Part shown: piece after piece, positions 12,912-50,895 of the stretch
How the letters are laid out: each line of letters starts with the position of its first letter
Numbering within the stretch: the stretch's first letter is position 1
From: an uncultured Planctomycetaceae bacterium
GTDB lineage: Bacteria > Planctomycetota > Planctomycetia > Pirellulales > Pirellulaceae
Direction of reading: 5' to 3'
DNA: 64,000 nt
Assembly: GCA_963844055.1 (NCBI GenBank)
Contig: CAWJMN010000002.1
Location: 2,181,586 to 2,245,585, forward strand
Made by a program: the position numbers and the translations under genes
Notes under the pieces: generated by a model
What the model was told of the DNA's origin: nothing
The model's input: only the letters and a program-made list of their open reading frames with translations
Database searches by the model: none

Positions 12912-14121
12912 ATGGAATGGACGGAAGCGCAAACCAAAATTGGCAAGCGGTTCAACCTTGCCATCGAAGAAAACAAGACGAAAGTAGTTCGCGAGCTAGT
13001 GCAGAAGCACTCCTGGCTCGTTCGGGATTACGAATGGAATAATCGTTCTACCTGGATGCGAACTGTAGGGCTCGTTGGTCATGTGGCGATGGCGGAAACG
13101 CTGTTGGACCTGGGTTTCAATATTGATGCCTTGAGTCTGCCAGAAAAATCTTCTGCCTTGTCTCTCGCTATTGCCTTTAAGCATTGGGATTTAGTTTGTT
13201 TTCTATTGGCAAAAGGGGCTAACCCTAACCTGGGGCGGGCGATGGTGTCGGCGATCAATTGCGAGGTTCCCGCCAAGCGTTTAGAACTGGTGATGTTGCT
13301 GGTAAAACATGGCGCCGACGTCAACCAGGTATATGACTTCATGGGTGACAAAGACACGGTATTCACAGTTCTAGATTGGACTGAAAAAAGTTCCGATGTC
13401 TACGCCTATCTGAAATCGGTGGGGGCCAAGCCCGCTTTCGAACTCAGAGGGAGTTCGAAAGATGTCGCAGCAACCGCTCCTGCCAAAAAAACGGCCGTCA
13501 AAAAGCGAGTTGGCGTTCCGACTGGGGAGCGGGAGGTGATCGACTATTTTCGTAAGGCCTTTGGGCCGGTCGATAAGAAAATTGTTAGCGAGGTGATTCC
13601 GACGGGGATTTCAGTAACGATCCATAGGATCAAGCCTTCCAAGGGGCGTCCGCACCTCACCTTATTTACAACCGGACTTTCGCAAGTCGCCATGCAGGTG
13701 CCTGCCGGCCAAGAGGAATATGCGCTGGCCGAGCTTTTCATTCAGCTACCCTACGACTGGAATGATGAGCAGCTTGGCAATCCAAAATGGAATTGGCCTT
13801 GGAAGTGGTTGCAAAAGGTGTCGCAGTATCCGCAGCAGAACCAGACTTGGCTGGGGGGGGCCGCTCACGATTGTGGCCAACGAAGAACCGCCCCGGCCGC
13901 TGGCCCCTCATACGAAGATGACGTCGCTGTTGCTTCTGGCCGAGAAGTCGTTCCAGCGAAAGGATGGCAAGGTGGTTCAGCTTTATCGGATGCTTCCACT
14001 ATTCACAGAAGAGCGAGCGCTCGAACAGCGTGAAGGTGCCCTTGCTTTGATGCAGGCCCTTGACCGGAACAAGGTCCCCTTTGTTGTCGACATGGCCCGC
14101 AAGAGCATCGCCAAAAAGTAG
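12912..14121 (+). CDS. ankyrin-repeat + SUFU-like (immunity-type) protein; frameshift in a G8 homopolymer at ~13849-13857
   Basis: The N-terminus has ankyrin-like repeats (LAKGANPN..., LVKHGADVNQ). A SUFU-like segment (HLTLFTTGLS...ELFIQLPYDWN...WNWPWKWL) continues after the poly-G in ORF 13720..14121 (WGGPLTIVANEEP...LYRMLPLFTEERALEQ...). Confidence 0.55.
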
Positions 14122-14239: not shown

Positions 14240-15619
14240 ATGTCCAAATCAATTCGCCGACTACGCAATGTAATTGTTGTTATGGTGATGTGCTGGACTG
14301 CCGTCGCCGTGTTTGCCGCGAGGCGTTTCTATGTAGATCTGCGGGATAGCAAGCGGGTTACGGCCAAGATTGATACGCTCCGCGCTACTAGCCTTCCCGT
14401 CGATAATGCAACGATGGATAAGTGGTATCGTGATCATACCGATCCGGACCACATGGAAGCGTGGCTAAAAGTTCTTGAGACCCTTAGCTCTCGAACTTTT
14501 CGTGCACAATCCCGAGGCGTAGAAGGGTTTGATCGCAATGCCCGGGGCAATGCACGAACGGCCCATCAATGGCCAGGAGAGGCTGCTGCTCGAAAGTTGC
14601 TCGCGGAGACGACAGAATTGCGAGAAGAAATCCGACGCCTTGCCCAAACGCGAGTGCCGGTCCGATTTCCGATTGAGTTTCAATCGACGCGTACCAACCG
14701 AGGGCATATCCAGCCGCTAAGACAGGCTTCTCGATTGATTGCGCTGGAACTTAGTGCGGCCATCGCGGACAAAAATTCTGCGCAGATCGTTGCTGCTGTG
14801 CAAACCTTGCTTGATCTGGCAGTGGTTCTTCGTCGAGAGTATTTCAACGTCCAACAACTTTCGAATATCGCGATTCGAGATTTGGCCTTTCATGCCTTAA
14901 AAGAGTCGCTGGAGCGCGACCTGCTCGCATCAAAAGAACTAGAACTTCTCTCGCAGAGTTTGCCGCAAGAGCCAGTGCCGTTTGATTATCTTCAAGAGAT
15001 CGTCCAGGCTGAACGTGCGTTGCTGCTTCCCTTGTTCATAGAGCCGACAAGGCATTCTGAATCGAAGTTGAAAGAAGTTGTTTCTGGGGGAAAGCCCGTG
15101 ACCGGTAAGGCCGCGCCTCAAGATGTGCTGCATTTTTTAGAGCAGATGGAAAAGTATGAATCCCTAGATGGCATTTCGATGACGGATGCGCTGGCACGGC
15201 AAAGTCGATTTGAACAGCAGATGATGAAAGACATCCTAGCGACTGGCAAGGTGAGCCTTCGCGAGTGGCAAATGACAAAACAAGTGTTTCCTGCTTGGGG
15301 CTCTGTCCTCACGACCTTGTGCCACGATCGCCAGCGATTGAACATGGTTTTGCACGGCATAGCGATTCGGCGTTATCAGGATCAGTTTGGCAAATTCCCC
15401 CAGGACTTGGCCGCACTGAAAGACATTGGATTTAACGCCGATGACTATTTGCCCGTCGGGGGCAAACCCATGGGATACAAAATCGATGGGACCGATGTGA
15501 TTTTATGGTCCAATCGCCCCGCCGTAGGCGAGCAAACGTCCCCTCAGCCTCCCATCATCGGCCCAGCAGGCACCGGCGATTTCCGACAGGACCAACTGCT
15601 GTGGAAAATGGTCCCCTAA
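14240..15619 (+). CDS. hypothetical membrane-anchored protein, paralog 1 of a triplicated family
   Basis: Start chosen at MSKSIRRLRNV to match paralog 3. It has an N-terminal signal-anchor TM and a conserved C-terminus (HGIAIRRYQDQFGKFPQDLAALKDIGF...LWS...WKMVP). Confidence 0.6.
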   Translation: MSKSIRRLRNVIVVMVMCWTAVAVFAARRFYVDLRDSKRVTAKIDTLRATSLPVDNATMDKWYRDHTDPDHMEAWLKVLETLSSRTFRAQSRGVEGFDRNARGNARTAHQWPGEAAARKLLAETTELREEIRRLAQTRVPVRFPIEFQSTRTNRGHIQPLRQASRLIALELSAAIADKNSAQIVAAVQTLLDLAVVLRREYFNVQQLSNIAIRDLAFHALKESLERDLLASKELELLSQSLPQEPVPFDYLQEIVQAERALLLPLFIEPTRHSESKLKEVVSGGKPVTGKAAPQDVLHFLEQMEKYESLDGISMTDALARQSRFEQQMMKDILATGKVSLREWQMTKQVFPAWGSVLTTLCHDRQRLNMVLHGIAIRRYQDQFGKFPQDLAALKDIGFNADDYLPVGGKPMGYKIDGTDVILWSNRPAVGEQTSPQPPIIGPAGTGDFRQDQLLWKMVP

Positions 15620-15812: not shown

Positions 15813-16155
15813 CCTAAGAGGGGCCTGTCTCAAGGTCCTCATCCATTTTCCTTTTTGACGAAAAGAGGAAGGGGGTGCATTTTTTACATAAGGTGCCCTT
15901 TTGAGTGCTGTTGGCACAAATACACCGGGGGAATCCACAGTAAATAGACACTAACTCCTAATAGTCAGGCCGTCCTGCCGCCGCCAAATTTGATGGTACC
16001 AGTCGACCTACTTGTCTTGCGTACGTACCACCCGCAGAATACGTACTTTCCAGCATGTTCTCATGCTAAATCGATCGAGATTCTTGGATCATTCACTTTG
16101 ACGAATGCCCCTCCCTTTCTCCAAGATGATCCACGTTAACGAAGAGGGAATGTAG

Positions 16156-18821
16156 ATGGCGCTTTCAAGCGAGCAATTCCTGAATCAGATTGTCGCCAGC
16201 GGACTGCTGACTCAGGAAGAGGTTACGGCATTGTTAGGCACTTTGTCGCCTGAACGGCAACCCAAAGATGCCGAGCAGCTCAGCTCGCGAACTTGTTCGG
16301 CAGAAGAAGCTGACCAAGTATCAGGCCGAGCAGATTTATGCGGGCAAAGGCAAGACGCTGATTCTTGGCAACTATGTGGTGCTCGACAAGCTTGGCCAAG
16401 GCGGCATGGGAGTGGTGCTGAAGGCGGAGCACAAGCGGCTCAAGCGTCTGGTTGCTTTGAAGGTGATGTCTCCCAATCTGGTGAAGACACCGGATGCCTT
16501 GAAGCGGTTTCATCGTGAGGTCGAAGCGGCCGCCAAGTTACGTCATCCGAATGTCGTCGCAACGGACGACGCCGATGAAGCCAAGGGGACACACTTTCTG
16601 GTGATGGAGTATGTGCAAGGCAGTGACCTTTCGGAGCTCGTGAAAAAGAATGGTCCATTTACGGTGTCGCAGGCCGTGCAATGTATCCTGCAAGCGGCAC
16701 GCGGACTGGAGTACGCCCACAAACAGTCTGTGGTCCATCGCGACATCAAGCCAGCCAATTTGTTGCTTGATATTTCGGGTACCGTAAAGATTCTCGATAT
16801 GGGGCTGGCGCGAATCGAAGGGGATACGGGCAACCAGAGCGGACTGACCAGCACTGGCGCCGTGATGGGAACGGTGGATTATATGGCTCCCGAACAGGCT
16901 ATGAGTACGAAGCATGCCGATGCGCAGTGATATTTACAGCTTGGGGATTTCCTTATGGTATTTACTCACCGGTAGATGTGCCTACGACGGAGATACATTG
17001 ATGTCGAAACTACTGGCGCATCGCGATGCGCCCATTCCGTCGCTCGCTTCACTGGATCGTAAAATCCCGGCTGCGCTGGATAGCGTGTTTCGTAAGATGG
17101 TGGCGAAAAACGCCAGTGAGCGGTACCAGACGATGGCAGAGGTGATTCGCGACCTGGAGAGCTGTTCTGGCGGCTCCAGTTCGCCTTCCGAGGCAGGGGC
17201 GACAAGCGACCTGGAAAAGTTCAGCCAGTTTTCGCTTCATAGACAGCCCGCAGGTTCGCCATCTCCCATGACGGCAACGCAAACGATCTCGGCGCCAAGG
17301 GAGCAGACCAAGGCAAACACTCCGTTAGAAGCGACGTTGGTGGTCGCCAATGCTGCGATGGATACAAATCCGCAGACCGTCGCTTTGCTCCGCCCACAGG
17401 AGCGGTTGCCGACGGTTGGGCAATCGCCAGTTGCTGGTAAAACCACAGCGCCGCCATGGTATCGCAGTCCACTGGTGCTGCTTGCCGGAGGTGGTGCGGC
17501 AGCGCTGATCCTGTTGATGGTGGTGTTCCTGATGAAAACTCCGCATGGAACCTTGCGTGTGGAGATTCTCGATCCCAAAGTCGAGATGAAAGTAAAAGGT
17601 ACCGAAATCACGTTTCACTCGACGGACATCGAAGCGGTTTCGCTAGTTACGGGCGAAAAGAAACTAATCGTTAACCGGGGAGATCTCTCCTTTGAAACGG
17701 AGACCTTTGCGCTAAAGAAGGGAGCAGAGACCCTCGTCAAAGTAGAGCTGATTGGTGACCAACTTGTAGTGAATAGCGACGGCAAAGTGATTGCCGAGAA
17801 ACCGATCCCGCATCCACTCGCAAACAATGCACCGAAGGATATGACGAAGGAAACGATTCCTGTCGTGGCGACTCCGGTCGCAAGGCCTCCTGTGTCCAAG
17901 GATGGAATTCCGAATGCGGCGGTTGAACCGTTTGACACGGAACAGGCTCACGCCTATCAGGAAGCATGGGCGAAGTACCTTCAAGTGCCGGTTGAATTTA
18001 CAAACTCGGTAGGGATGAAGTTCATACTTGTCCCACCGGGAGAGTTTACGATGGGTGCTTCTGAGGCGGAAACAGATCGGATCGATATTTCAAACGACGA
18101 CGAGGAAATTCGAAAAATTGTGCGGCAAAAATTTGCTGAGTCTTCTCCACCACATCGGGTGAAAATCACGCGGCCGTTTTACATGCAGACACATGAAGTG
18201 AACAACGGTGTCTACCAGAAGCTGCTGGGAAAACTTCCTGAGGAAAACGACCCTGCGAGGCCCGAGATGCCAGTGATGGCAAACGTGTCCCTTAATGACG
18301 CCGTCTCGTTTTGCGATGCACTCAGCAAGCTGGAAGGTAAGACTCCTGCGTATCAACTGGTCCGTAATAAGCCAAAGCGGAATCTCGATGCGAATGGATA
18401 TCGATTGCCAACCGAAGCCGAATGGGAATATGCTTGTCGAGCTGGCACGACGACCCTTTGGCATTTCAAAACGGAACCCATGGTTCCGAAAAATCTTTTG
18501 GCGCTGAAAGAGTATCAGACAATTTGGAGTAAGGAAAATACACGCCCCAACCCCTTCGGCATCTATGACCAATATGCATCAAGTAGCGAATGGTGTTTCG
18601 ACCGTTTCCAGCCGTATTCCGATAAGACCGAAGTCGATCCATTCACTCCGCCCGATGAAGGTTACGCAGTCGTACGCGGGGGGAGTTTTTTTTCCAACGG
18701 CGGAGCAGACGCAGGAGACAACAACAGCTTCATTCGCATGGCCGGTATTGCAAGCCGATACACGGGCCTGGGGCGTGTCGTTCTCCCCCTTGAGATCAAG
18801 CAAGAGACCCCCAAGCCGTAA
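16156..18821 (+). CDS. Ser/Thr protein kinase fused to a formylglycine-generating-enzyme (SUMF1/FGE-sulfatase) domain; two apparent frameshifts (~16285-16295 and ~16920-16925)
   Basis: Kinase motifs [32 protein letters not shown] and APEQ are present. The frame breaks before subdomain I and at ...[16 protein letters not shown] segment follows, then an FGE domain ([20 protein letters not shown]...[20 protein letters not shown]). Confidence 0.7.
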
Positions 18822-22325: not shown

Positions 22326-22700
22326 TTAATCAAGCTGGGCGGGGCTGAGGCCGACGTTGACGATGCTGCAAGCTTGAATCACGTTCAGCCCAAGCTTTTC
22401 GGCGGCCGCGACTACTTCGTCGCTTTCACTGCCGGGGTTCAGCCAAAGCTCGTTACAGCCACGGGCAGCGATCTCTGGCAAAACGTTCAGCAGAATCTTG
22501 GGAGGCAGATAAACGCTCACGCGATCTAACTGTCCGGCAGGAATTTCCGCGAGCGACGAATAGACTTCAAGACCCTCGATCTGCCCCCCTTTGGGATTGA
22601 TCGGATAAACCGTGAAGCCTTTTTGCAAATGGGCTCGGACCGATTTATTGCCGTACTTCGAGCGATCGGAACTGGCTCCTAGGATGGCGACGGTAGGCAT
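22326..22700 (-). CDS. CoA-binding domain protein (YccU-like)
   Basis: MPTVAILGASSDRSKYGNKSV...LPPKILLNVLPEIAARGCNELWLNPG. Start placed at the Met preceding VAILGAS. Confidence 0.6.
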   Translation of the reverse strand: MPTVAILGASSDRSKYGNKSVRAHLQKGFTVYPINPKGGQIEGLEVYSSLAEIPAGQLDRVSVYLPPKILLNVLPEIAARGCNELWLNPGSESDEVVAAAEKLGLNVIQACSIVNVGLSPAQLD

Positions 22701-22955
22701 GGCACAGGCTCTCTGCAAAGGAAATGGCGGACGGACTTTAGGTGAGATTATTCTGCCTGGCATTTTAGTGGATCAGACTGGTTTTCCCTAGCGGCAATCG
22801 TCGTTTTGCAGGGGCGTTAAGCAAAAATGCGTTTGTTAGGCCCTGCTGGCCGGAAGGGGTGGGTGTCTATAATGGAACTAGCCTTCAAGCTCGGTGGGTT
22901 TGTTGCTTGGGGCTGGCTCCTTTTGATGGAATAGGTCCGGCGCTGATGGCGCTGC

Positions 22956-24219
22956 ATGCTCATGTCGATTGCTGATACTTTGCCGCTAGACCCTTATCGC
23001 CTGCGGGCCGACTTTCCGATCCTTTCGCGAGAAGTGCATGAAGGTCGGCAGCTTGTCTATTTGGATAATGGCGCAACAACCCAACATCCGCGCAGCGTAA
23101 TCGATGCGCTCGTGGGAGTTTACGAAAAGCATTATGCGAACGTCCATCGTGGCATCCATACGCTGAGCGAAGAGAGCACCAGCCTGTATGAAGCGGCCCG
23201 CGAGGCGATTCAAAAGTTTATCCATGCGGCCAAGCTGGAAGAGATCGTCTTTACAAGTGGAACGACGGCCGGCGTGAACCTGGTTGCCCGAAGCTGGGGC
23301 GATGCGAACGTTCGCGCCGGGGATGAGATCTTACTGACGCTGATGGAGCACCATTCCAACATCGTTCCGTGGCAACAATTGGCCGAGCGAACCGGTTGCA
23401 CGATTCGATTTGTTCCGCTGACGACAGACTTGCAGCTGGACCTTGAGGCCTTTGAAAAATTGCTCTCGCCTAAGACCAAGCTGGTCGCCTTCACCGCGTG
23501 CAGCAATGTGTTGGGGGCTTATAACCCGGTTGAAAAGATGAATCGCTTGGCCCATGCGGCCGGAGCGCTAGTGCTGGTAGATGCGGCGCAGGCAGTGCCT
23601 CATGCCGAGCTGGACGTACAGAAGTGGGACGCCGATTTTGTCGTCTTCAGTGGGCACAAGATGCTAGGGCCTTCCGGCGTGGGAGTGTTGTATGGCAAAG
23701 AAGCACTGCTTGAGGCCATGCCGCCCTTCTTGGGAGGTGGCAGCATGATTCGTAGCGTCACGCTCAGGGGTTATGAAAACGCGATGCTTCCTGCGAAGTT
23801 TGAAGCAGGGACTCCGCCGATTGCGCCGGCCCTGGGAATGACAGCCGCGATTGAATACCTAACCGGTGTTGGCCTGGAGAACATTCATCGGCATGAGGCA
23901 CTGCTTGCCGAGCGCGATTCCGCTGCTAAAGAATGTGCCTGGGCTAACGCTGTTTACACCTCCGAGCGAAGCGGGGCATAGTGGGATTTTGTCGTTCGTG
24001 ATTGAAGGGCTGTCGTCACGTGACATTGCCGAGTATTTGGACATGCGAGGGATTGCGATCCGCGCAGGGCATCACTGCGCGATGCCGTTACATGAACGGC
24101 TTGGCGTTTCTACGACGTGTCGCGCGAGCTTCTACTTGTACAACACGCCCGAAGAGGTCGATCAATTAGCCGCAGCGCTGGTGAGTGCACAGCGGATCTT
24201 GTCGAAGCGGCGACGATAA
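22956..24219 (+). CDS. sufS: cysteine desulfurase SufS/CsdA family; apparent frameshift near 23915-23920
   Basis: PLP-lysine motif FSGHKMLGPSGVGVLYG is present. The C-terminal RAGHHCAMPLHERLGVSTTCRASFYLYNTPEEVDQL lies in the overlapping ORF 23866..24219. The junction reads ...LAER/AIPLLKNVPGL. Confidence 0.8.
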
Positions 24220-24239
24220 AATGTTCGCCGCGAGGAACG

Positions 24240-25211
24240 CTATTCTCTGATGATCACTTGCGCTGGTGGCGCAGCGGGGCGATTGACGATCGGCATAGCG
24301 ACGTCCGAAGGGCTGGTGGCCGCTTGGTCGGAAGCCTCGGTCGTATGGCCGGCTTGCAGGACTTTGCCTTCATCGCCCACGCTGGGCTTTTGAGGCTCAA
24401 ATGTTTCAGGAGCGCGGATCGCGCGGAAGTCGATCGCGCTGGAATAGGCGACGAGCGGATCAAGCGGATCTTTGTTCTTGGCCATTAGCCGCTGCGATGT
24501 GCCCAGCAGGTATCGCCGGCGTGCGCCACCGTTTTTGGTGTAGATATCGCCGCGCTGGAATGGCCCCATGCCAAATAGCCAAGACTCGCGGGACTTGCTG
24601 TTGCCGCTGGTGATGCCAGATTGCCAAACGCGTTCCATCGTCTCACGTTCATAGGCAAAGGCCGCCAATTTTGCAGCGCCCCATTGGTGGTTCTTTCTTC
24701 CCAGGGAGAATTCAGGAGCGGCAGCCGTTGTGATCGGCACGCCGGTCATCACTTGCGAGGCGGCAGAAAACGCGGCGATACCAGGAACGCCGTAGGTGGA
24801 TTCTGCACCGTCGGCGCCGAGGGCACCTAGGCGTGCTTCCAAGATGAACTCGGCATCTTCGGGCTTTTCCCGCAAACGCAAGTTGTAAGCGATCATCTGC
24901 TGACGCATCGAGCTGATAACGTACTCGACGTTGACATTCGATGGCGACTTTACCGAAGCAATGTATTTGGTGTCGAAGTAGACGTCGCGATCGGTAAGCG
25001 GACTAAAATCCATCCGGGCAATCGCTTGGTCGACGGCGTCGGTCACCAGAAGTTGTTCCGAAGCGAGGCGGAACTTTTGCACGCCGCAGCCACTAGCAAA
25101 TGCCATGAGGCATAGCCATCCACCCAGCCCCAAAAGAACCCGCAGCCGGCTTGAAGCGAGGCGCAGATTCTGGAGAGAGGATTTCACGAGATGGAGGTGC
25201 GAAGGAAACAT
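24240..25211 (-). CDS. hypothetical lipoprotein
   Basis: Signal peptide with lipobox (LMAFASGC). No recognisable domain. Confidence 0.45.
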   Translation of the reverse strand: MFPSHLHLVKSSLQNLRLASSRLRVLLGLGGWLCLMAFASGCGVQKFRLASEQLLVTDAVDQAIARMDFSPLTDRDVYFDTKYIASVKSPSNVNVEYVISSMRQQMIAYNLRLREKPEDAEFILEARLGALGADGAESTYGVPGIAAFSAASQVMTGVPITTAAAPEFSLGRKNHQWGAAKLAAFAYERETMERVWQSGITSGNSKSRESWLFGMGPFQRGDIYTKNGGARRRYLLGTSQRLMAKNKDPLDPLVAYSSAIDFRAIRAPETFEPQKPSVGDEGKVLQAGHTTEASDQAATSPSDVAMPIVNRPAAPPAQVIIRE

Positions 25212-25248
25212 GGCGTGGAAAAGGAAGTGCTTCTGGTGGAGGGACGGT

Positions 25249-25908
25249 TTAACGCATTTGATTCCAAATCTGCATGCCGATCAGTGCCAGAGCGGATGCA
25301 ACGGGTGCTTGCCACTCGCGATGCTTGGCCCATTGCGACCAAGAGAAACCTTCTGCCGATGGCAAAGCAAAGCGACAAGGAATGAAACGAGGCGTGGTCT
25401 TGATGTAGTCTTCCCACTCTTTTTCAAACATGGAGGACAGCCAAACTTCTTCTTGGCGAACCTTCAGCCAGTACATGAAAGCGAGCGGACCCAAGATGAC
25501 CCAGATGGTGTGGGCTTCTTGCATTAAGGCACAAAAGCCAAACATCATCAGGAAGGAACCGACATAAAGCGGATTGCGAACGAGTGCGTAAGGACCCGAA
25601 CGCGTAACGGTCTTTAGTTTGTGCAGCGTGCCAGCAGCCCAACTGCGAATTGTCACACCCAGCACGACCAAAACTTCCCCCAGTACGACAAGCGGATCGG
25701 AAAAGTTCAGCAGGTTTCGTGGCTTCACCTTGAACACAAACAGATCGAGCAGCACCAACGTGGTGAACAAGACCAAGCTGATGGCGATGCGGCGCTTCGT
25801 TAAGAAGTAGCCGATCCAGCTGAGCCAGGTTCCATCGTTGGTATACAGGTTGATCGGGGTGGCTGGTGTTGATCCAGAAACTTGTGAGGCCATCGCAGGG
25901 TCTTTCAT
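25249..25908 (-). CDS. membrane methyltransferase (isoprenylcysteine carboxyl / phospholipid methyltransferase family)
   Basis: Multi-TM protein with the RSGPYALVRNPLYVGSFLMMFG motif typical of ICMT/PEMT-family enzymes. Confidence 0.55.
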   Translation of the reverse strand: MKDPAMASQVSGSTPATPINLYTNDGTWLSWIGYFLTKRRIAISLVLFTTLVLLDLFVFKVKPRNLLNFSDPLVVLGEVLVVLGVTIRSWAAGTLHKLKTVTRSGPYALVRNPLYVGSFLMMFGFCALMQEAHTIWVILGPLAFMYWLKVRQEEVWLSSMFEKEWEDYIKTTPRFIPCRFALPSAEGFSWSQWAKHREWQAPVASALALIGMQIWNQMR

Positions 25909-26329
25909 ATAAATGCTCAGCTACAACAGCTGACTTGGAAGGCGGGGCAGCTTGGCAAGCGCCGACCGACCTTCATCAGGAGGACTTATAGGGTTTGTGG
26001 AAAAAATGGGCAATCGCAGTCCTGCGCCAAACGATTTTTGGCCGTATTCCGACCCTCTGCGGGAATGCGTTCGCACACGACGGCCAGGGGAAGAATGGCC
26101 CAGAAGTCGCCTTGGTCGGTCAGAGTTCGGCCGGCGGACGGCCAGGGCCCTAAAAGAGGCTTCCAGGAGGTGAAAATAGCGGTGGGATCGTCCGGTAAGG
26201 TGTGGTAAACTCATGCCACTCTTCCCAGATACCCAAGAGTGAAATCAGACTGCTGCTTTTTCCCGGACTGCGCATTCACCCCAGACTTCCTCAAAAGCCG
26301 GCCGTATTTCGTACCCTGAAGACTTCGCT

Positions 26330-27245
26330 ATGTCTCCCACCATCTTTCACAAGTTCTTGGCCGAGTTGCTGGGGACCTTTTTATTGGTTCTGTTTGGCTG
26401 CGGCGCGGTGCATGCCTCGGTGTTGGCGTCGGCTCCGCTGGGAAGTTGGCAGATTGGAATTGTGTGGGGCGTGGCGATCATGGCGATCGCGACGGTTTGC
26501 GGCGGGATCAGCGGCGCGCACTTGAACCCGGCGGTTACGCTGAGCGATGGCGCTATGGGGGCGGTTTCGCGGCAGCCACTTGCTGCCTTACATCTTTGCC
26601 CAATTCATCGGCGCATTCATGGCGGCGGTTACGTTGCACATGCTCTATGGCGGGTTGCTGCTGAAAAAGGATGCCGACCTGAACACGATGCGTGGTCAGC
26701 CGGGAAGCATTGTGACGGCCTCTTGTTATGGCCAGTACTTTCCTAGCCCCAGCACTTGGACACCAGGGGGAACGGCCAACGTTGTCAACTCGATGGGACA
26801 GCCGATTCGGATTGAGGTTGTTTCACAGCCGGTGGCCTTTTTGGCAGAGCTGCTTGGAACGGCGATCTTGGTGCTGGTGATCTTTGCGGTGACTGATCGA
26901 AAGAACCAGCATGCTCCGCCGAGCTGGATGGGGGCGGCCTATATCGGGCTAACGCTGGCGGCGCTAATCACTTTCCTTTCGCCGTTGACGCAGGCGGGCT
27001 TTAATCCGGCGCGGGACTTTTCGCCGCGATTGTTTGCCTACTTTGCGGGCTGGCGTGAAGTGGCGATGCCGGGCCCGAACGGAATTGGCTATATCACGGT
27101 CTATGTGATGGCCCCATTTTTGGGCGCGATTGTCGGGGGCGGGTTCTATGAGGCGATTTTTCGTCCCCTGTTAAGCGTGAAGCCCCGCGACATCGATCTT
27201 GATATGATCTTGCGCGATGGTCCCCGCGATGATGAGGATGAATAG
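26330..27245 (+). CDS. aquaporin/glycerol facilitator (MIP family); apparent frameshift near 26540-26550
   Basis: The first NPA box (GAHLNPAVTL) is in ORF 26330..26746. The continuation (MALWGRF...LPYIFAQFIGAF...) runs through a second half-repeat in ORF 26547..27245. Confidence 0.75.
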
Positions 27246-30548: not shown

Positions 30549-30612
30549 GCGCTTCACGGAGAGTGGTCAGGGCTAGGCATTTGCGAGCGGTGGTTTTTTC
30601 GCAGCGAACAGG

Positions 30613-30665
30613 AGACCTCTGATGGCCTGCGGCCTCACTGGTTCAAGAACCGGTGCTACTCGATG
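30613..30665 (+). repeat. short hairpin repeat, family 'GACCTC..ATGGCCTGCGGCC.CAC-hairpin-GGTGCTAC'
   Basis: It is similar to 43289..43314, 46814..46867 and 47062..47114, with a central perfect hairpin (ACTGGTTCAAGAACCGGT here, CACCGGATCAAGATCCGGTG elsewhere). Confidence 0.5.
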
Positions 30666-31327
30666 AATAAAGAAGCGGCGACACGATTAGAAAAGTCAAT
30701 TAGCGATGGCGTAGAATTTTCTTCGCGGCAGTATGCAGCTTTCAGGGGTCCGTGGGGATTTGCGGGATAGCTGATGTTAAGGCTTGTCGAATCAGGAGTT
30801 AGGTTCGATAGTCTAGAAATCGGATCGAGAATTCTCGGTTGAAAAAAACAGCGAGCGCTTGAAGTCGCGAGGGGCGCTGTTAGCATTTTACTAAGGCTTG
30901 CGTATCACTACGGGCCGGTTGCGGAACTTGTTTCCGAAGGGAAAATCTGCAACTGAGTCACCCATGCATTCTTTGGCAGCGTGGGGAAAACGAACGACGT
31001 AGGAACGACAAGTGAGCATGCGAGGGACTGCTGGTGTCTTGTAGCACCGCGGCCTAAGCATCAGAACGCTCAAGCTAGTTTTCGCGAAAGCACAGACTGG
31101 CCTGGCACAAAAGAAGGACGCCATGAATCTGTTGTTCGGCATTATGCCAACGGCAATGGGGCGCACACAAACCAAGTTGCAAGTGGCAACTCTGGCTCGC
31201 TGATTCTTGCTTTTGAGCGTAGGGACGAAGCCACGCTGGCTATCGCTCCGCCGCGGTGAAACCTGCCTACACGGTGTTTGGCCGTGCTGCACTTCTACAC
31301 CCGGTCACTCTCGCTGGAGAAGGAAAT

Positions 31328-32674: not shown

Positions 32675-32825
32675 CTAGTAGACCATCTGCGTTAATTTGT
32701 CGTGGTCTTCTTAGAGCAACGCGGCTCGTTAGGCACGGGGATGACCGGGCGCTTACGCTTCCGGCTCTGAAAATGCATGACATTTAAATGCAGTGGTGGC
32801 ACTCGAGGTTGACGACGAATCCATG

Positions 32826-42149: not shown

Positions 42150-43250
42150 GTGATGCATCTTCCGAACGTTGAATATAGTCGTCGCCGATGGCTGCAAGCC
42201 TCTTTGTGTGCGGGGGCGATGCTTCCTGCGTGGTCGTTGCTGGCAGCGGAAGAGCCTTTGCCGCCCCATGCGGATCTGACTTGGTACCCGGGAAAAGATG
42301 GAGCGCCGCAACGGCCACTAAAGACCCAGGGAGATTGGCAAAAGCGTCGCGAGGCAATCTTGGCCAACGTGAAGTTGGTGATGGGGACGTTGCCGGCACC
42401 GAAGGAACCGGTACCGCTGGCGATGGAAGTGCTCGAAACGACGCAGTTGGATTTCGGGACGCGGCAGAAGGTGCGGTACCATACGGACAAGGAGGATGCT
42501 TGGGTGCATGCGCATCTGTTCCGGCCTAAAGGGAAGGGGCAACTGCCTGCCGTGCTGTGTTTGCACCAAACCAACAATGTTGGCAAGGATGAACCAGCAG
42601 GGCTGGGGGGCAAGGAGAGTTTGCACTATGCCTTGGAGTTGGCCAAAGAGGGTTTTGTGACGCTAGCGCCGGACTATCCTTCGTTTGGCGAGTACAAGTA
42701 CGACTTTGCCAGCGACGATCGCTACATCAGCGGCACACTTAAAGCGGTTTACGACAACATGCGTGCGATTGATCTGCTGATCTCGCTGGGGTTCGTCAAC
42801 GCGAAGCAAATCGGCTGCATCGGGCATTCGCTGGGGGGGCACAATACGATCTTTACGATGGTGCATGACCAGCGGATTCAAGCCGGTGTGAGCTGCTGCG
42901 GCTTTACCCGTTTTCATAAGTACTATGCAGGAGATTTGAACGGCTGGACGAGTGCTCGGTATATGCCGCGGATCAAAGAGGTGTATGGGAATAGCCCGGA
43001 CAAGGTTCCGTTTGATTTTCCGGAGTTGTTGGCTTGCCTTGCGCCGCGTGCGTTTCTGACCGTTAGCCCCACGCGCGACAATAACTTTGAAGTCTCGGGC
43101 GTAAAGGATTCCATCGCCAGCGCTCAGCCGATCTTTGACCTGCTAGGGGCGGGGAAGAAGCTGCAGGCCCTGTACCCAGAGGCAGAGCACGACTTTCCCG
43201 AGGAATCGCGCAAGGCTGCTTATGCTTTTTTGAAAGAGCAGCTAGGGTAG
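42150..43250 (+). CDS. Tat-secreted alpha/beta hydrolase (dienelactone hydrolase / acetyl-xylan-esterase-like)
   Basis: SRRRWLQASLCAGAMLPAWSLLAA Tat signal. GHSLGGHN nucleophile elbow. Confidence 0.6.
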   Translation: MMHLPNVEYSRRRWLQASLCAGAMLPAWSLLAAEEPLPPHADLTWYPGKDGAPQRPLKTQGDWQKRREAILANVKLVMGTLPAPKEPVPLAMEVLETTQLDFGTRQKVRYHTDKEDAWVHAHLFRPKGKGQLPAVLCLHQTNNVGKDEPAGLGGKESLHYALELAKEGFVTLAPDYPSFGEYKYDFASDDRYISGTLKAVYDNMRAIDLLISLGFVNAKQIGCIGHSLGGHNTIFTMVHDQRIQAGVSCCGFTRFHKYYAGDLNGWTSARYMPRIKEVYGNSPDKVPFDFPELLACLAPRAFLTVSPTRDNNFEVSGVKDSIASAQPIFDLLGAGKKLQALYPEAEHDFPEESRKAAYAFLKEQLG

Positions 43251-43418
43251 TGGCGGACGCAGCCGAACTATAAGGCCGAATCGGGCATGACCTCCCATGG
43301 CCTGCGGCCACACCTACCCGCTGCATCCTTTCTAGAGCAATTATTGTGTCGATTGGTTAAATCGCTTGGCGAGCAAAAGGGCAACCAGTTCGGACGCAAC
43401 GGAAGCAGTACGGCAAGT

Positions 43419-43832
43419 ATGGCTCGAATTAAGCACTATGAACTCGGTATTTCGGAACTTCAAAAGCATCCGGTATGGACATGGTTCTATGGTGATTTGG
43501 AGGAGCCAGAGAACATGGTTGTCCCTGTTGAAATGACGGAGGAGGGGTTAGCAGAAGCAGATGTCCTCATGATCTACTCTCAATTTAAGACCGCTGCCGG
43601 CAATGAACACGATGGCTATGTAGTATTTGATCCAGACTTAGGGGAAGTTTTTGCAATTAACATATTCGTTCCTGGGTGCAGGATTCCTTTCAACATTCGA
43701 TTAGCAGATCTGGCCCCAGAGCAGCTCCAACAATACGCAAAGGCGACGGGCTATTCCGCGAGTGATGTACTGCCAATCAAATATCGAACGAGGGCTTCGC
43801 TGTTAGATGTTGTCGGAGAATTTGGCTACTGA
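43419..43832 (+). CDS. hypothetical small protein (cassette-like ORF 1)
   Basis: MARIKHYELG... ~137 aa. It lies within the AT-richer islet and is preceded by a partial copy of the islet repeat. Confidence 0.4.
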   Translation: MARIKHYELGISELQKHPVWTWFYGDLEEPENMVVPVEMTEEGLAEADVLMIYSQFKTAAGNEHDGYVVFDPDLGEVFAINIFVPGCRIPFNIRLADLAPEQLQQYAKATGYSASDVLPIKYRTRASLLDVVGEFGY

Positions 43833-43887
43833 ATTAAACGGATAGTAGCCATGCCCCAAGTAATGGCTTGTGACACATATAGCCCTT

Positions 43888-43965
43888 ATAGTAGCATACC
43901 CAAGTGGCAAGGCTGCCTCTTGTAAACCCCGTTTGGCGAGCAAAGGGGGCCACCCGCGTCTTTCG
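43888..43965 (+). repeat. islet repeat element copy B (AAGTGGCA.GG.TGCC...GTAAA....TTGGCGAGCAAAGGGGGCCACCCG)
   Basis: It shares a ~70-nt core with 45611..45697, 46733..46812 and 46984..47060, and contains 2-3 hairpins. Confidence 0.6.
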
Positions 43966-43989
43966 ATCTCGTTGTTGGTAATAACGTGT

Positions 43990-44394
43990 ATGCAAACTAT
44001 TAAGTTTCGTGACAGGTGTGTAATTTTATTCTTAGCGTATTATGCTGGGGCTGCTATAGGCTCTTTAGCTGGCAGCCTTTTTAGTCCATTTTGGCAAAAC
44101 CCTTCGTTTTTTGAACGAGTATTTATTTTCTTTGGTATTCCAGTTATTAACCTGGCTACACTCTTAATTGCTCCGCTTGTAGTAATTGGAACTTTTAGAT
44201 TGCAAAATGAAAATGAGCGAATGTTTAGTATGGCTGTTATTCCTGCTGACCTGGCTGTAATTGCTTTATCAATATTTCTTTTGAAGTCAAAACAATTGAG
44301 TGCAATACACGTTTTGTTAGTTGTGTTTGCCTCTCTCGTTTTTAATCTGTGTTATGTAGCTTCAAATGTCATTGTTTTAGGCAATAGACTTTAG
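43990..44394 (+). CDS. hypothetical small polytopic membrane protein (cassette-like ORF 2)
   Basis: MQTIKFRDRCVILFLAYYAGAAIGSLAGSLF... about four hydrophobic segments. The DNA is very AT-rich relative to the rest of the window. Confidence 0.45.
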   Translation: MQTIKFRDRCVILFLAYYAGAAIGSLAGSLFSPFWQNPSFFERVFIFFGIPVINLATLLIAPLVVIGTFRLQNENERMFSMAVIPADLAVIALSIFLLKSKQLSAIHVLLVVFASLVFNLCYVASNVIVLGNRL

Positions 44395-44405
44395 TGCGAT
44401 ATTGC

Positions 44406-44437
44406 GCCGGGTGCCACTGCTGGCTTGTCCAGCAGTG
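44406..44437. repeat. 32-bp inverted repeat, left arm
   Basis: GCCGGGTGCCACTGCTGGCTTGTCCAGCAGTG. Its reverse complement recurs at 44622..44653 with one mismatch. Each arm is itself a 9-bp-stem hairpin. Confidence 0.6.
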
Positions 44438-44621
44438 TGGATGTTGCGAACGGGTGGAATAGAAGTGAATAACCAAAGCTCGATGACGAGGAGATGGTGC
44501 ATTAGGAATTGACGTTCTCTCGCTACTACCGGACGCCCTTGTTGACCTAGGATGTTTGGCAAGAACTGCTTGCCGAGAGCTTCGACGTTCCGTTACTCAG
44601 AGAAAGGCACCGGCGATTACC

Positions 44622-44653
44622 GCACTGCTGGACGAGCCAGCAGTGGCACCCGG
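44622..44653. repeat. 32-bp inverted repeat, right arm
   Basis: CACTGCTGGACGAGCCAGCAGTGGCACCCGGC. Confidence 0.6.
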
Positions 44654-44699
44654 CATCGATCATCAACAACAGTCGATTCATAAATGGAGTTCCGTTGCC

Positions 44700-45101
44700 A
44701 TGAGGAATCGCAATGCCTATGGACAGCTGCAACGTTACGTTGGCGTAGTTATTCAGAATCTTCGTGTAGAGTATTGGTCGGACCCTCCAAATGCTTTGGA
44801 CCATTTAATTTGTGTTGCAATCGAGTTCGCCAACGGAGACAGCTTGATCCTATCCTGTGCTGGTGACGGTGGAATCTCTGTTCGTAAGGGCAAGCTCGAA
44901 GGTGCTACAGGGAATCGGCAACTACGAACGATTCACCAAACGCTGGGGCAAGTTATCCGCTTTATCGAGTGTGATTGCGACAGCGTCACCTTGTTTATGA
45001 CAGAACATCAGGTCAGGCTCTCTAATCACGACGACGAATTGGAGATGACAGTGAACGGCCGTAAGGTGAGCGACTCGCTTGATGATTCGGCTATGGACTG
45101 A
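44700..45101 (+). CDS. hypothetical small protein (cassette-like ORF 3)
   Basis: The track ORF 44556..45101 overlaps the right IR arm. Met 44700 (MRNRNAYGQLQ...) is the first start downstream of it. Confidence 0.35.
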   Translation: MRNRNAYGQLQRYVGVVIQNLRVEYWSDPPNALDHLICVAIEFANGDSLILSCAGDGGISVRKGKLEGATGNRQLRTIHQTLGQVIRFIECDCDSVTLFMTEHQVRLSNHDDELEMTVNGRKVSDSLDDSAMD

Positions 45102-45167
45102 TCGTAGCTGTGGCACTCGGCGAGATTCCGTTTGAAACTGGCAAGCATTACCGAGAGATGTCACACC

Positions 45168-45527
45168 ATGAGCAAAAACACCGATCTTATCGAACAATAC
45201 TATGCAGTTCGCAAGGGAGATTTTGGTTACCTCGAACGTATTGAGCTAGTTCAGGACGTTGATCCAGTGAAGTGTAATGGCTTTCAACTGACGATCGTCC
45301 TTAGGTCTGGAACGGATTCGTCGTCGCCTGCCCTTCGATTGGAATTTAAGGGAGCGCGCGATATTCGCATTGGGGATTTAGGGGGCCTCGTTTGTTACAT
45401 GCTAGAGATTCGGTGCATCGAGGAGAGGCAATTGGAAGGCCTTCGATTTGAGGTAACAGAATCTGAATATGACGCTTTTTCGTTCGTATGCGAAGCATTT
45501 GCGTTTGTGAGTGAGACGGGGGAATAG
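45168..45527 (+). CDS. hypothetical small acidic protein (cassette-like ORF 4)
   Basis: MSKNTDLIEQYYAVRKGDFGYLERIEL... ~119 aa. The track ORF begins at a TTG, and the first ATG is at 45168. Confidence 0.4.
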   Translation: MSKNTDLIEQYYAVRKGDFGYLERIELVQDVDPVKCNGFQLTIVLRSGTDSSSPALRLEFKGARDIRIGDLGGLVCYMLEIRCIEERQLEGLRFEVTESEYDAFSFVCEAFAFVSETGE

Positions 45528-45610
45528 CCATTATGCAAGGCTCAGCAGTCACATTGCCGACCGCATGGATTGACTGCTGGTAAATGTAGTAGGTTGCAAT
45601 GACAATGGCG

Positions 45611-45697
45611 TAGGATAGTCAAGTGGCAGGGCTGCCTCTTGTAAATCCCGCTTGGCGAGCAAGCGGGGCCATCCGAGATGGCCCGTAGTAGTAAATG
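45611..45697 (+). repeat. islet repeat element copy C
   Basis: CAAGTGGCAGGGCTGCCTCTTGTAAATCCCGCTTGGCGAGCAAGCGGGGCCATCCGAGATGGCC has three consecutive perfect hairpins (GGCAG/CTGCC, CCCGCTTG/CAAGCGGG, GGCCATC/GATGGCC). Confidence 0.6.
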
Positions 45698-45708
45698 AAG
45701 ATGTTTGA

Positions 45709-46557
45709 ATGCCGATGAAACCCAAGACGTTTTACCAAGTTTGGCTACTACTGCCTTTGATGATTTGTGTGGTACTTTTGGCAGGCTACTTTCGAATCGT
45801 TCGCGCGGCAGCCAGGTCTCAGATTGCACTTTTCAAGATTGCTTCACGCCATGATCCGCTGTTTGAGTATGATGTGGAAAAACCGTCAACGTTTTCGTTT
45901 GCGCAAACACTTGGCCTTGCTGCTCCAAAGTATGGCACTAAGTTGATGCTTAGCTCGTCTGACGTTTCAGATGTAGAGCTGCGCATGCTTTGCGATCTTA
46001 AAAATATAACAAAGCTGCACCTTGAAGAGACAGCAATATCCGATAGTGGTCTTGAAAGGATAGCTTTGCTGCAGGATTTAAAGTCGCTTCGGATTAAGTC
46101 GACACGGGTAGGGGATGTGGCTGCAAATCATATTTCTCATCTGAAACAACTTGAGTCATTAAACCTAAAGAACACTCTTATAACTGATGAAGGTGTTCAG
46201 CTCATTGCTTCGATGCCCAAGCTAAAAGATCTTACGATTGGCAGCCCTTCGCTGACTGACAAAAGCTTGATGAGTATTGGCAGTATGTATTCACTTAAGG
46301 ATCTAGCGATCAGCTCTCCTCGGGTGTCCGACGAAGGGTTGAAGCATCTCGACAAGCTGACAAACCTTGAGTGGCTAGATTTGACTAATACGTCAGTGTC
46401 TGATAGTGGATTAGTTCATTTGGAGACGTTGCCTCGCCTTGCGAGCCTATTTGTAGAGGGCAGCAACGTTACGATGGAAGGAGCTGCATTCCTGAAAGAA
46501 AGAATGAGTTCTTTGAAGTATGTGGACATTCTTCCGCGTCCTGCGGCCTCAAGATAA
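45709..46557 (+). CDS. membrane-anchored leucine-rich-repeat protein (cassette-like ORF 5)
   Basis: N-terminal TM (VWLLLPLMICVVLLAGYF) followed by ~8 LRR units (LxxLxLxxTxIxDxGL). Confidence 0.55.
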   Translation: MPMKPKTFYQVWLLLPLMICVVLLAGYFRIVRAAARSQIALFKIASRHDPLFEYDVEKPSTFSFAQTLGLAAPKYGTKLMLSSSDVSDVELRMLCDLKNITKLHLEETAISDSGLERIALLQDLKSLRIKSTRVGDVAANHISHLKQLESLNLKNTLITDEGVQLIASMPKLKDLTIGSPSLTDKSLMSIGSMYSLKDLAISSPRVSDEGLKHLDKLTNLEWLDLTNTSVSDSGLVHLETLPRLASLFVEGSNVTMEGAAFLKERMSSLKYVDILPRPAASR

Positions 46558-46625
46558 TCGCGTGCATTCTATTGCGAAAAGGAAGCATGGCTCACGGTGG
46601 TCAGTCTGGATACCTGTGTTCCAGA

Positions 46626-47114
46626 GATTGTCTCTTGCGACCACTAGGAAGAGACTTCGATGGGTTCCAGCTTGGAACAACCGCGCCCTAACAAGAGGGA
46701 AAACGCATAGGACGCGGCAAGAGGGCGCGTCGACGAAGTGGCATGGATTGCCCGCGGGTAAATGTCGAAGCTTGGCGAGCAAACAGGGCCGCCCGCGAGG
46801 TAGTAGCGGGGCGTGACCTCCAATGGCCTGCGGCCACACCGGATCAAGATCCGGTGCTACCCACTGGTTCTAGACATTGTCTCTTGCGATCGCTGGGGAG
46901 AGACTTCGATGGGTTCCAGGTTGGAACAACCGCGCCCTAACAAGAGGGAAAACGCATGGGACGCGGCAAGATGCCGCGTCGACGAAGTGGCATGGATTGC
47001 CTGCGGGTAAATGTCGAAGCTTGGCGAGCAAACGGGCCACCCGTGAGGTGGTAGCGGGGCATGACCTCCAGTGGCCTGCGGCCACACCGGATCAAGATCC
47101 GGTGCTACCCAATG
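46626..47114 (+). repeat. tandem duplication of a ~245-bp hairpin-rich unit (copy 1 ~46626-46872, copy 2 ~46873-47114)
   Basis: The two units are near-identical. Each contains GTCTCTT..AAGAGAC and GTTCCA..TGGAAC hairpins, the islet core motif (46733-46812; 46984-47060) and the CACCGGATCAAGATCCGGTG hairpin repeat. Confidence 0.7.
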
Positions 47115-47156
47115 AAGGGCATGTAGCCCAAAGAAGTGGAAACGGGCGGCGGGGTG

Positions 47157-47967
47157 CTACTCGGCAGATTCTTTCAGCAAGATGCCGATGCGAGCGGGGG
47201 GATAGTCGCGGATGTCCCAGTTGTCGTTGTCGTGTGTCAGGTCGGGCCACAGCTCGATCGGATTCACGCGAGTATCGCATTCGATCACTAGCACGCTTCG
47301 ATCTGGGGCGGCATTCCAGAGTCCCCGCACGAGGGCATCCATGTCTTCCGCGCGAGAGATAAAACTCGTACGGCGGCGAGCAGAAGATCAACCAAGGAAG
47401 GCCGTTTTGCAGGAAGCGAATGTTCGATGCTTGGCCAGGGATCACCTTGCGTGGTGCGGGAGCGACCCCTTCGCCAGCCACTTCTGGATGGAGCTTCTCC
47501 ATGGCGCGGCGGACCCACAAGAACGTGTCGGCAAAGCAGACTTCGCAGGCTTCCTTCTCGTGAAGGGACTCGACGTTCTTGGAGATGGTGATCGAGGTGG
47601 GGAGGTGCTTTTCTAGAAGGATCGCCTGGGAGCAGCCCCGGCTGATTGCTTCAAGCCCCAAAGCTCCGGTCCCTGCAAAGAGGTCAATCGCCACGCGCCC
47701 TTCGCAAAAGGTGCTGACGAGGTTGAACAGCGACTCGCGAACGCGGTCCTTCATGGGGCGTGTGCGAACGTCACCACTGTAGACGAGGGTTCGGCCGCGA
47801 TGCTTGCCACCAATAATGCGAACGGTGCCGGGGCCTTCTTGGGCCTCTGGGGCTGGCCGTCCGGCACGCTCGGGGGACTCGGCCCCTTCGGCGGCCTCGC
47901 GGCCTTCGGGCGCATCGTGGTCACGGCGTTTGGAGCGGGGAGGACGAGAATCGCGTTTGGCGGGCAT
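47157..47967 (-). CDS. rsmD: 16S rRNA (guanine966-N2)-methyltransferase RsmD; apparent frameshift near 47340-47360
   Basis: VRIIGGKHRGRTLVYSGDVRTRPMKDRVRESLFN, DLFAGTGALGLEAISRG and IFCSPPYEF are in ORF 47092..48096. The C-terminus (MDALVRGLWN...VLVIECD...) is in ORF 47157..47342. The start is approximated at MPAKRD. Confidence 0.7.
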
Positions 47968-48200
47968 GTCGCAAGGCTTGCAAAAAGGGACGAGCAGAAA
48001 GGGGAAGGCCCCCCTCTGAAAAAAACCGGGCGAAATGCCTGACAATGGCGACGAACCATGCAGCAGCTTGGTTCGTACAAACAAGGTCGTGGGCACTACT
48101 TCGGGGTGGTGTCCAGGAGGTTGCCACGTGGCTTAATTCCCGGCTGAATGTATGGTAACCTACCGGTCTACAAGATTCGATTCGTAGGGAGTAAAGTTCC

Positions 48201-50612: not shown

Positions 50613-50895
50613 TAGGCGAGGTGATGGCTGGGCATTTTCAGAGCCGGAAGCGTCAGCGACGGCCATCCCTCGGTGAAGTCGCCGTTGGCACCGCGCGGCT
50701 GTTGGCCAGGAAGCGGGGGAACACTGGCCAGGCTCGAAAAGAGCTTTGAATAATGGCGGCCCCTGTTTCGAGCAACTTGCCAGTGCCACCACAACCAATG
50801 CATCGCAGATTTGCATTGATGGTTGGAAGCGCAGGGCGGAAGGTTGCCCGTGGTTTGCGTAGCGTCGTTAGGTCTGTCGGCGCTAACCTACTCGA

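Follow-up and report, generated by a model that had tools for sequence, protein, structure and literature searches.

A putative integron-like cassette array with a non-attC structured site between a hydrolase gene and rsmD in a Pirellulales lineage

To our knowledge, the integron alone is well established as a means of stockpiling single-gene cassettes at a fixed site, and searches for cassette arrays are defined by its attC sites. Here we describe an array of small open reading frames (ORFs) punctuated by a ~70-nt structured element, which we call M1, in a 64,000-nt stretch of DNA from an uncultured Planctomycetaceae bacterium (GenBank assembly GCA_963844055.1, contig CAWJMN010000002.1, positions 2,181,586 to 2,245,585; the whole stretch is hereafter the window). 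The array occupies the interval between an alpha/beta-hydrolase gene and rsmD (43.25-47.16 kb). An initial annotation, made from the letters alone, had proposed either an integron-like array without integrase or a mobile repeat family. We are highly confident that this observation is correct and that the cassette-array reading is right in substance. As its best explanation we favor, by a modest degree, a lineage-specific integron-like cassette platform with its own type of site and a dedicated recombinase acting in trans.

Several described systems resemble this locus. In integrons and in clusters of attC sites without an integron-integrase (CALINs), each cassette carries one promoterless-looking small ORF and one structured site of ~60-170 nt (PMC4889954), as is the case here. 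The present array also shares with them co-oriented cassettes, mutually similar sites, a fixed chromosomal locus and a content that differs between close relatives, together with cassettes shared at different positions, a cargo mostly of unknown function and, as in CALINs, no adjacent integrase. The plasmid dif (pdif) modules of Acinetobacter are likewise small, recombinase-less gene modules between short conserved sites, shuffled between replicons presumably by host-encoded recombinases in trans (PMC6449649, PMC13141974). Their sites are 28-bp XerC/XerD sites found in alternating orientation on plasmids, whereas M1 is ~70 nt long, always direct and chromosomal, has no XerC-6-XerD pattern and is not placed at a switch of GC skew. 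A Xer/dif reading of M1 was set aside, with GC skew positive throughout the islet and the resemblance of GTAAA to a XerD arm as the sole likeness. The tycheposon islands of Prochlorococcus also occupy fixed gene 3' ends, with repeated partial attachment sites separating integrase-less cargo, and they span several kilobases, carry an integrase or transposase of their own and insert mostly at tRNA genes (bioRxiv 10.1101/2020.12.28.424599). Here, in contrast, the units are single ORFs, no integrase remnant was seen, and the site combines a protein-gene end with a structured repeat. Finally, repetitive extragenic palindromic (REP) sequences, bacterial interspersed mosaic elements (BIMEs) and REP doublets (REPINs) are, like M1, short GC-rich intergenic hairpins between gene ends, but REPs occur genome-wide in both orientations and M1 is restricted to a single locus and orientation, at the boundaries of cassettes.

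The islet (43251-47156) has a GC content of 0.489 compared with 0.556 for the rest of the window, and windowed GC drops from ~0.56 to 0.36-0.49 over 43400-46500, with a minimum of 0.36. It contains five cargo ORFs, all on the + strand between the hydrolase gene and rsmD, the fifth of which encodes a leucine-rich repeat (LRR) protein. A profile search of the 64-kb window found five + strand copies of M1 in the islet (E 6e-6 to 7e-21) and nothing better than E=4 in the rest of the window. The low GC content, the five small same-strand ORFs and the element recurring at their boundaries were all as first described, as was a tandem duplicate near 46984-47060, which belongs to a pair of 249-nt units (46618-46866 and 46867-47114) that are 93% identical and close the array. 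The main features are as follows.

42150-43250, + strand: alpha/beta-hydrolase (Peptidase_S9/DLH) gene, left anchor; Pfam match, conserved in relatives
43355-43389, + strand: M1-A, right half only (H2 core TTGGCGAGCAA plus GGGC..CC), 53 nt upstream of the ORF1 start; nhmmer E=6e-6
43419-43832, + strand: cassette ORF1, 137 aa; from the ORF table, no Pfam or NCBIfam match
43843-43868: partial M1 copy, by sequence comparison
43890-43957, + strand: M1-B, full copy by profile; H1 AAGtGGCA-AGGC-TGCCtCTT, GTAAAC, H2 CCCCGTTTG-GCGAG-CAAAgGGGG, CCACCCGCG
43990-44394, + strand: cassette ORF2, 134 aa, hydrophobic, GC ~0.36; from the ORF table
44700-45101, + strand: cassette ORF3, 133 aa; from the ORF table
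45105-45150, + strand: possible decayed M1 (GTAGC..GTGGCA..TTTGAAAC-TGGCAAGCA) between ORF3 and ORF4, below the profile threshold and seen by alignment to the L074 M1a only
45168-45527, + strand: cassette ORF4, 119 aa, the same as the first cassette of L074 (87% aa identity)
45528-45676, + strand: composite 3' site of the ORF4 cassette, upstream blocks followed by M1-C
45563-45596: partial M1 copy, by sequence comparison
45609-45676, + strand: M1-C, by profile; end of the composite site
45709-46557, + strand: cassette ORF5, 282 aa, N-terminal hydrophobic segment and leucine-rich repeats
46618-46866, + strand: terminal unit 1, comprising an 'up' module (46618-46723), M1-D, a linker and a second repeat, M2 (46809-46866)
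46724-46796, + strand: M1-D, with a type II left half; by profile
46867-47114, + strand: terminal unit 2, the tandem duplicate, comprising an 'up' module, M1-E and M2 (47057-47114)
46975-47044, + strand: M1-E, by profile
47157-47970, - strand: rsmD (16S rRNA methyltransferase; Cons_hypoth95), right anchor by Pfam, and also the right anchor in L071, L073, L074 and L075

The H2 core TTGGCGAGCAA occurs exactly five times in the window, always inside the islet, and eight times when up to one mismatch is allowed, compared with 2.4 expected. In many cassettes M1 is preceded by ~60-100 nt of additional conserved blocks, which at the composite site read ATGCAAGGC.., ATGGATTG..CTGGTAAATG and TTGCAAkGACAATGGC.TAG. 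By alignment this composite site, ~125-170 nt and longer than M1, lies 3' of three different ORFs in L073 and L074.

Relatives were reached via hydrolase homologues and via members of the 90% clusters of neighboring proteins. They comprise metagenome-assembled genomes (MAGs), Logan contigs and one metagenome contig, with the following content between the anchors.

Window: ORF1-5
L075/L076, Logan contigs: closest relative, hydrolase gene 93% identical in nucleotides; in L075, a 464-aa LRR protein and a 72-aa ORF
L071, MAG GCA_046349835.1, Pirellulales: an Exo_endo_phos gene and two reverse-strand ORFs
L048-L051, Logan contigs: in L048, the same content as L071
L073, JGI metagenome 3300028830: one 202-aa ORF
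L074, MAG GCA_053550735.1: four + strand ORFs of 119, 156, 202 and 131 aa

Hydrolase orthologues with 80-93% nucleotide identity were present in L048, L051, L071, L073, L074 and L075. The surrounding gene order was kept at 72-97% nucleotide identity, both upstream (IclR, PSCyt/PSD1, DUF1501, an 881-899-aa protein and the hydrolase) and downstream (rsmD and two cyclophilins). Between orthologous anchors that are 77-97% identical, the sets of ORFs nevertheless differ in the window, L075, L071, L073 and L074. The five complete islets have a GC content of 0.48-0.50, compared with 0.555-0.564 in their flanks. L048, whose contig stops inside the islet, shares its cargo with L071 at 98% identity between flanks that are 89-92% identical. 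The six versions of the locus that were recovered supply junction sequences.

An nhmmer survey of the window and eight related loci (~197 kb) gave significant M1 matches that were confined to the hydrolase-rsmD interval, all of them on the + strand. The first M1 takes in the stop codon of the hydrolase gene in L051, L048, L071 and L074 (GGG TAG CAT ACC CAA GTG GC..). The L074 array then proceeds from the hydrolase stop at 13797 through M1 (13792-13860), ORF119, M1 (14326-14391), ORF156, M1 (15200-15266), ORF202, M1 (16014-16071), ORF131 and a further copy, M1' (16634-16664), to M2 and rsmD, with each M1 placed 23-60 nt ahead of the following start codon, and the layout in the window matches it. 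Residence in a syntenic intergenic region of relatives had been named at the outset as the mark of an ordinary regulatory site. M1 does lie in such a region, yet at the boundary between conserved and variable DNA, and because it marks that boundary its syntenic position supports the mobile reading.

The confinement of M1 also bears on the suggestion that a family of REP-like repeats or miniature inverted-repeat transposable elements (MITEs) had seeded the islet. As an account of M1, a selfish repeat of this kind accumulated by chance in a variable region is very improbable. Two such structured repeats do occur in the islet, namely M2 and an element at 44406-44654, which the REP/MITE label fits, but M1 is missing from all other intergenic regions in the surveyed ~197 kb, has a single orientation and is without terminal inverted repeats or target-site duplications. 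Nor was M1 recovered by exact-core scans of genome, metagenome and viral contigs. These scans returned 20 stretches from GTDB-representative genomes and 26 from JGI metagenomes, all of them chance on inspection; the pattern allowed no change in TTGGCGAGCAA or GTGGCA, missed relatives with one-base variants and did not recover the source genome itself. Pattern scans of IMG/VR viral contigs for M1 and M2 gave chance matches only or none, and BLAST of whole arrays against plasmid and phage collections gave no match. Within the collections scanned, only a narrow lineage of Pirellulales showed the system.

Single cassettes were shared between relatives at different positions in the array. The window segment 45168-45678 (ORF4, spacer and M1-C) is 90% identical over 511 nt to L074 13883-14393, with the encoded proteins 87% identical, and this cassette is fourth among the ORFs of the window and first in L074. 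For comparison, identity between the hydrolases of these two genomes is 84.6% in nucleotides and 82% in amino acids. Similarly, L074 15265-16070 (ORF202 plus M1) is 91% identical over 806 nt to L073 13847-14651, and this cassette is third in L074 and the sole one in L073. Both shared blocks start no more than ~2 nt from the 3' end of the preceding M1 and stop at the 3' end of the following M1. An Exo_endo_phos module common to L071 and L072 also begins no more than ~2 nt from the M1 3' edge in L071, and in L072 it lies in an unrelated ybeY/phoH neighborhood. We consider it likely that M1 is the recombination junction, by whatever mechanism. The 202-aa protein of the second shared cassette (L073 13908-14516; L074 15326-15934) has an R-x4-H motif, RNGLAH, that is reminiscent of HEPN nucleases, and it had no Pfam match.

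The L071 version of the locus is the one that most recalls a tycheposon, with its hydrolase 3' end duplicated together with M1. Its cargo is bracketed by direct repeats of ~100 nt in which the final 33 nt of hydrolase coding sequence are joined to M1, and an N-terminal fragment of an insertion sequence (IS) transposase of the IS5 family (DUF4096) at 11847-12017 abuts the right-hand M1. The Logan contigs L048, L049 and L050 all stop exactly at the start of IS5-family sequence. Such a duplication around cargo is the classic signature of integration at a gene end, and the L071 cargo has the IS5-family fragment inside it. The islet might be the decayed remainder of one or more larger integrative elements for which the hydrolase 3' end was the target, as in tycheposon or phage integration, with M1 copies as leftover attL/attR scars. 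We regard this as improbable. M1 copies are spaced 0.25-1.7 kb apart with mostly one ORF per interval in several genomes, single cassettes are common to genomes at different array positions, and no integrase or remnant of one was found in any version of the locus. The gene-end duplication found in L071 was absent upstream of the internal M1 copies in the window and L074, where there was no significant similarity to the hydrolase 3' end.

A cassette of this array comprises a short leader, one small low-GC ORF mostly of unknown function and a conserved 3' site with an M1 core, and the primary M1 overlapping the hydrolase stop codon holds the position equivalent to the attI of an integron. Under the cassette platform that we favor, a recombinase presumably encoded elsewhere in the genome would recognize M1, with strand exchange at, or a few nucleotides from, its 3' edge (directly after ...CCACCCGCN). 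A free, probably circular, cassette carrying one M1 would integrate at a resident M1 and duplicate the site, recombination between two M1 copies would excise or delete cassettes, and repeated rounds would give rise to arrays that differ between close relatives. As every cassette shares the orientation of the hydrolase gene, the cassettes could be expressed by read-through transcription.

In 5' to 3' order, M1 comprises GTAGCATACCC, a first hairpin, H1 (AAGtGGCA / TGCCtCTT with a 4-nt loop), GTAAAC, a second hairpin, H2 (CCCCGTTTG / CAAACGGGG around GCGAG), and CCACCCGCG. In the consensus, H1 and H2 lie on the top strand with CTTGTAAAC between them and GGCCACCCG after, and H2 has a stem of 8-9 bp and a nearly invariant GCGAG loop. 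H1 and H2 were predicted for all copies, with a third hairpin for copy C only. The three consecutive hairpins that had been noted in copy C are therefore predicted, but not all are perfect, as H1 contains a T.T mismatch. The differences between copies B and C in the middle stem that had looked compensatory likewise comprise one true change (T-A to C-G) and, in B, a G.G mismatch. Among 11 full copies, 91.5% of the stem cells pair, compared with 43-55% after a shift of the 3' partners by 1-3 columns, and double-sided changes were found in two pairs (A-T to G-C in H1 and T-A to C-G in H2).

In the same 11 copies, 17 G.U cells pair on the + strand only, compared with 2 A.C cells, and when M1 was folded as single-stranded DNA the + strand had the better z-score in five of five copies. 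Because of this wobble bias and the better folding of the + strand, M1 probably acts as a folded + strand, either in mRNA or as the top DNA strand. The sequence GGCGAGC at the center of H2 was unchanged in 12 of 16 M1 copies, including copies with decayed left halves, and the loops and linkers (GCGAG, CTTGTAAAC and GGCCACCCG) were conserved to the same degree as the stems, which suggests sequence-specific recognition of M1. The core would also fit a double-stranded arrangement in which two 8-bp inverted arms flank a 7-bp overlap. M1-B shares 93-94% identity with the hydrolase-adjacent M1 of L051 and L071, a higher figure than the 80-82% of the adjoining hydrolase coding sequence.

Several other roles for M1 were considered and rejected. 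It contains no sigma-70-like promoter site (one site in 4.4 kb, compared with 4.4 expected), and on inspection the spacings for sigma-54 and extracytoplasmic function (ECF) sigma factors do not fit. No T-run follows H2, as an intrinsic terminator would have. A small ORF running through the composite site was discarded, with frame and stop codon varying among copies. Internal cassette sites as decayed hydrolase 3' ends were also dismissed, local alignments in the window and L074 being no better than shuffles.

The comparison with integrons was extended to the site itself. The + strand of 43200-47200 contains no RYYYAAC and two GTTRRRY motifs, with no pair 50-160 nt apart on either strand, and a relaxed scan for AAC/GTT inverted 7-mers in 11 spacers of the window, L073 and L074 gave two matches, no more than chance, that were not tied to M1. 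M1 is without the R''/L''/L'/R' architecture and the AAC/GTT cores of attC. Its fold consists of two local hairpins (with a third in copy C) rather than the single bottom-strand attC hairpin with extrahelical bases. These hairpins are short and favor the top strand, whereas attC forms one long hairpin of the bottom strand, and the primary M1 extends over a housekeeping gene's stop codon rather than adjoining intI, with no IntI known here. At the level of the array, at least two co-oriented sites lie within 4 kb, each after one ORF, and the content varies between strains.

The CALIN definition requires attC sites (PMC4889954), and because M1 fails the attC core and fold tests we did not file the array as a CALIN. 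Judged by core motifs and folding, M1 does not appear to be an attC site, and the array would be integron-like in function rather than by membership. What held of the initial proposal is a cassette array, through comparison with relatives; what did not is membership of the integrons or CALINs, for which R''/R' cores, a single long hairpin and intI were all wanting. A genuine integron cassette array with atypical attC sites and an IntI encoded elsewhere is accordingly a highly improbable alternative. The pattern of one ORF and one structured site, co-oriented and variable, with small genes of unknown function, is what such an array would show, and CALINs without a nearby intI are common (PMC4889954); the absence of any RYYYAAC...GTTRRRY pair from 43200-47200, of recurrent AAC/GTT inverted 7-mers from the 11 spacers and of a single bottom-strand hairpin stands against it.

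A number of observations weigh against a platform with its own recombinase. No recombinase or transposase Pfam match (PF00589 included) was found in the 52 window ORFs of at least 90 aa, in agreement with the earlier remark that no tyrosine recombinase is present in the window, and no recombinase or intI is listed within 10 kb of the array for L071, L073, L074 and L075 in their gene tables, which leaves the enzyme hypothetical. Movement is supported by comparative evidence only, with no circular form and no empty site seen. Junctions vary by the nucleotide, the ORF4 and ORF202 sites having tails of 20-30 nt after M1 that end in ..TGA, and this imprecision fits homologous recombination or decay equally with site-specific exchange. 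L075, the closest relative, has no M1 at all by profile search, and in the window, L073 and L075 the variable region has M2 instead of M1 at its left edge. The covariation of M1 is modest, with 10-11 of 500 shuffles reaching the observed value and the copies being mutually related, and M1 copies or arrays may also exist elsewhere in the source genome, beyond the ~197 kb surveyed. Contigs from MAGs and metagenomes could in principle have been mis-joined across repeats, yet the shared cassettes are found alike in independent assemblies.

Cassettes could also be shuffled with no dedicated enzyme, through general homologous recombination between the repeated copies of M1, and homology-driven swapping has been proposed for the 'minimal mobile elements' of Neisseria. 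M1 might accordingly be an intercistronic or 3' untranslated region (3'-UTR) RNA element, for example an mRNA-stabilizing or processing pair of hairpins, that provides 70-170 nt of portable homology for recombination after DNA uptake from relatives. The wobble bias and the better folding of the transcribed strand suit an RNA role, and the fuzzy junctions with their tails, the occasional use of M2 as an edge and the fruitless recombinase search described above are all as expected. Alleles of the left flank also cross clades, L073 having a window-like left flank and a hydrolase closest to that of L074. Left unexplained are how unrelated foreign ORFs each gained the same 3' site and why three left junctions, independent of one another, should all fall no more than ~2 nt from the 3' edge of M1, and the conservation of loops and linkers, which suggests sequence-specific recognition, also argues against this alternative. 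We consider it rather unlikely, though the most serious of the competing explanations.

A more specific form of the platform that we favor can be offered tentatively, as possible rather than probable. It would be an undescribed gene-cassette capture system distinct from integrons, with a class of top-strand-folded sites of ~70-170 nt in which H2 has 8-9-bp arms around GCGAG, a primary site within a housekeeping gene's end and, encoded elsewhere, a recombinase of unknown family, and it would generate strain-level variation in gene content in Pirellulales. If this is true, the locus represents an integron-like array whose unrelated site is invisible to attC-based tools, cassette platforms have evolved more than once, and an undiscovered pair of recombinase and site is indicated. 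Such a system would also account for some of the variation in gene content between strains of Planctomycetes, a phylum with poorly known mobile elements.

ORF1-4 had no Pfam, NCBIfam or PADLOC match and each forms a singleton 90% cluster. A search of 1.84 billion proteins found 67 cluster representatives homologous to ORF1 (E<=1e-3), ~140 aa long and without known domain, and because of these distant relatives of similar size ORF1 is taken as a real gene of a small, sparse protein family. The six-frame translation of the 249-nt tandem unit, searched as protein, gave nothing.

Two further repeats occur within the islet.

43283-43314, + strand: M2a', the first 32 nt of M2, a direct repeat of 46809-46840 and 47057-47088 and the left edge of the variable region
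44406-44654: a REPIN/MITE-like insertion of 249 nt in the array, with 35-nt inverted arms and no relation to M1

M2 has two hairpins, GGCCTGCGGCC and CACCGGATCAAGATCCGGTG, and the consensus GACCTCC..TGGCCTGCGGCC.CAC.GG.TCAAGA.CCGGTGCTACC. It is also found outside the islet, between gene ends, at window 30612-30668, L048 5219-5271 (- strand) and L074 7922-7965 (- strand), and the copy at 30612 preserves the second stem via an A-T to T-A change. M2 is a separate, dispersed REP-like element. An origin of M2 as a tRNA or tmRNA fragment was rejected, ARAGORN finding none and the hairpin, with its 7-8-bp stem and 4-nt loop, being unlike a T-arm. Each arm of the 44406-44654 element is itself a hairpin, GGTGCCACTGCTGGCTTGYCCAGCAGTG; the 28-mer arm hairpin, its loop conserved, occurs exactly in 11 IMG/VR stretches (L060-L070) of GC 0.57-0.67, sometimes as inverted pairs, and represents a widespread REP/REPIN-like family. 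The Logan contig L001 ends exactly at one arm. Rfam 15 gave no match at gathering threshold in the whole window and two chance snoRNA matches in 43200-47200 with E up to 10, and ARAGORN found no tRNA or tmRNA.

Elsewhere, a further short intergenic repeat, GGCTGGCCGCTCGCTCACGCTTCCGGCTCTGA..., occurs at window 32738-32783 and 50635-50670 (- strand) and also at the unrelated locus L072 1056-1102. Relative to L075, the rsmD gene of the window has a 2-nt deletion at ~47348 that splits it, and a TonB-dependent receptor (Plug ORF plus barrel ORF) and a kinase/FGE-sulfatase pair are likewise split into overlapping ORFs, at 9495-9498 and 16914-16930. These split genes are either pseudogenes or the product of an assembly prone to indel errors. 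A block of CoA_binding, Aminotran_5, DUF6655, PEMT and MIP genes lies at window 22326-27245, ~20 kb upstream of the array, and directly downstream of the cyclophilins in L071 (15845-20723), L073 (18378-22646) and L074 (20417-22646), a placement that reflects rearrangement between lineages.

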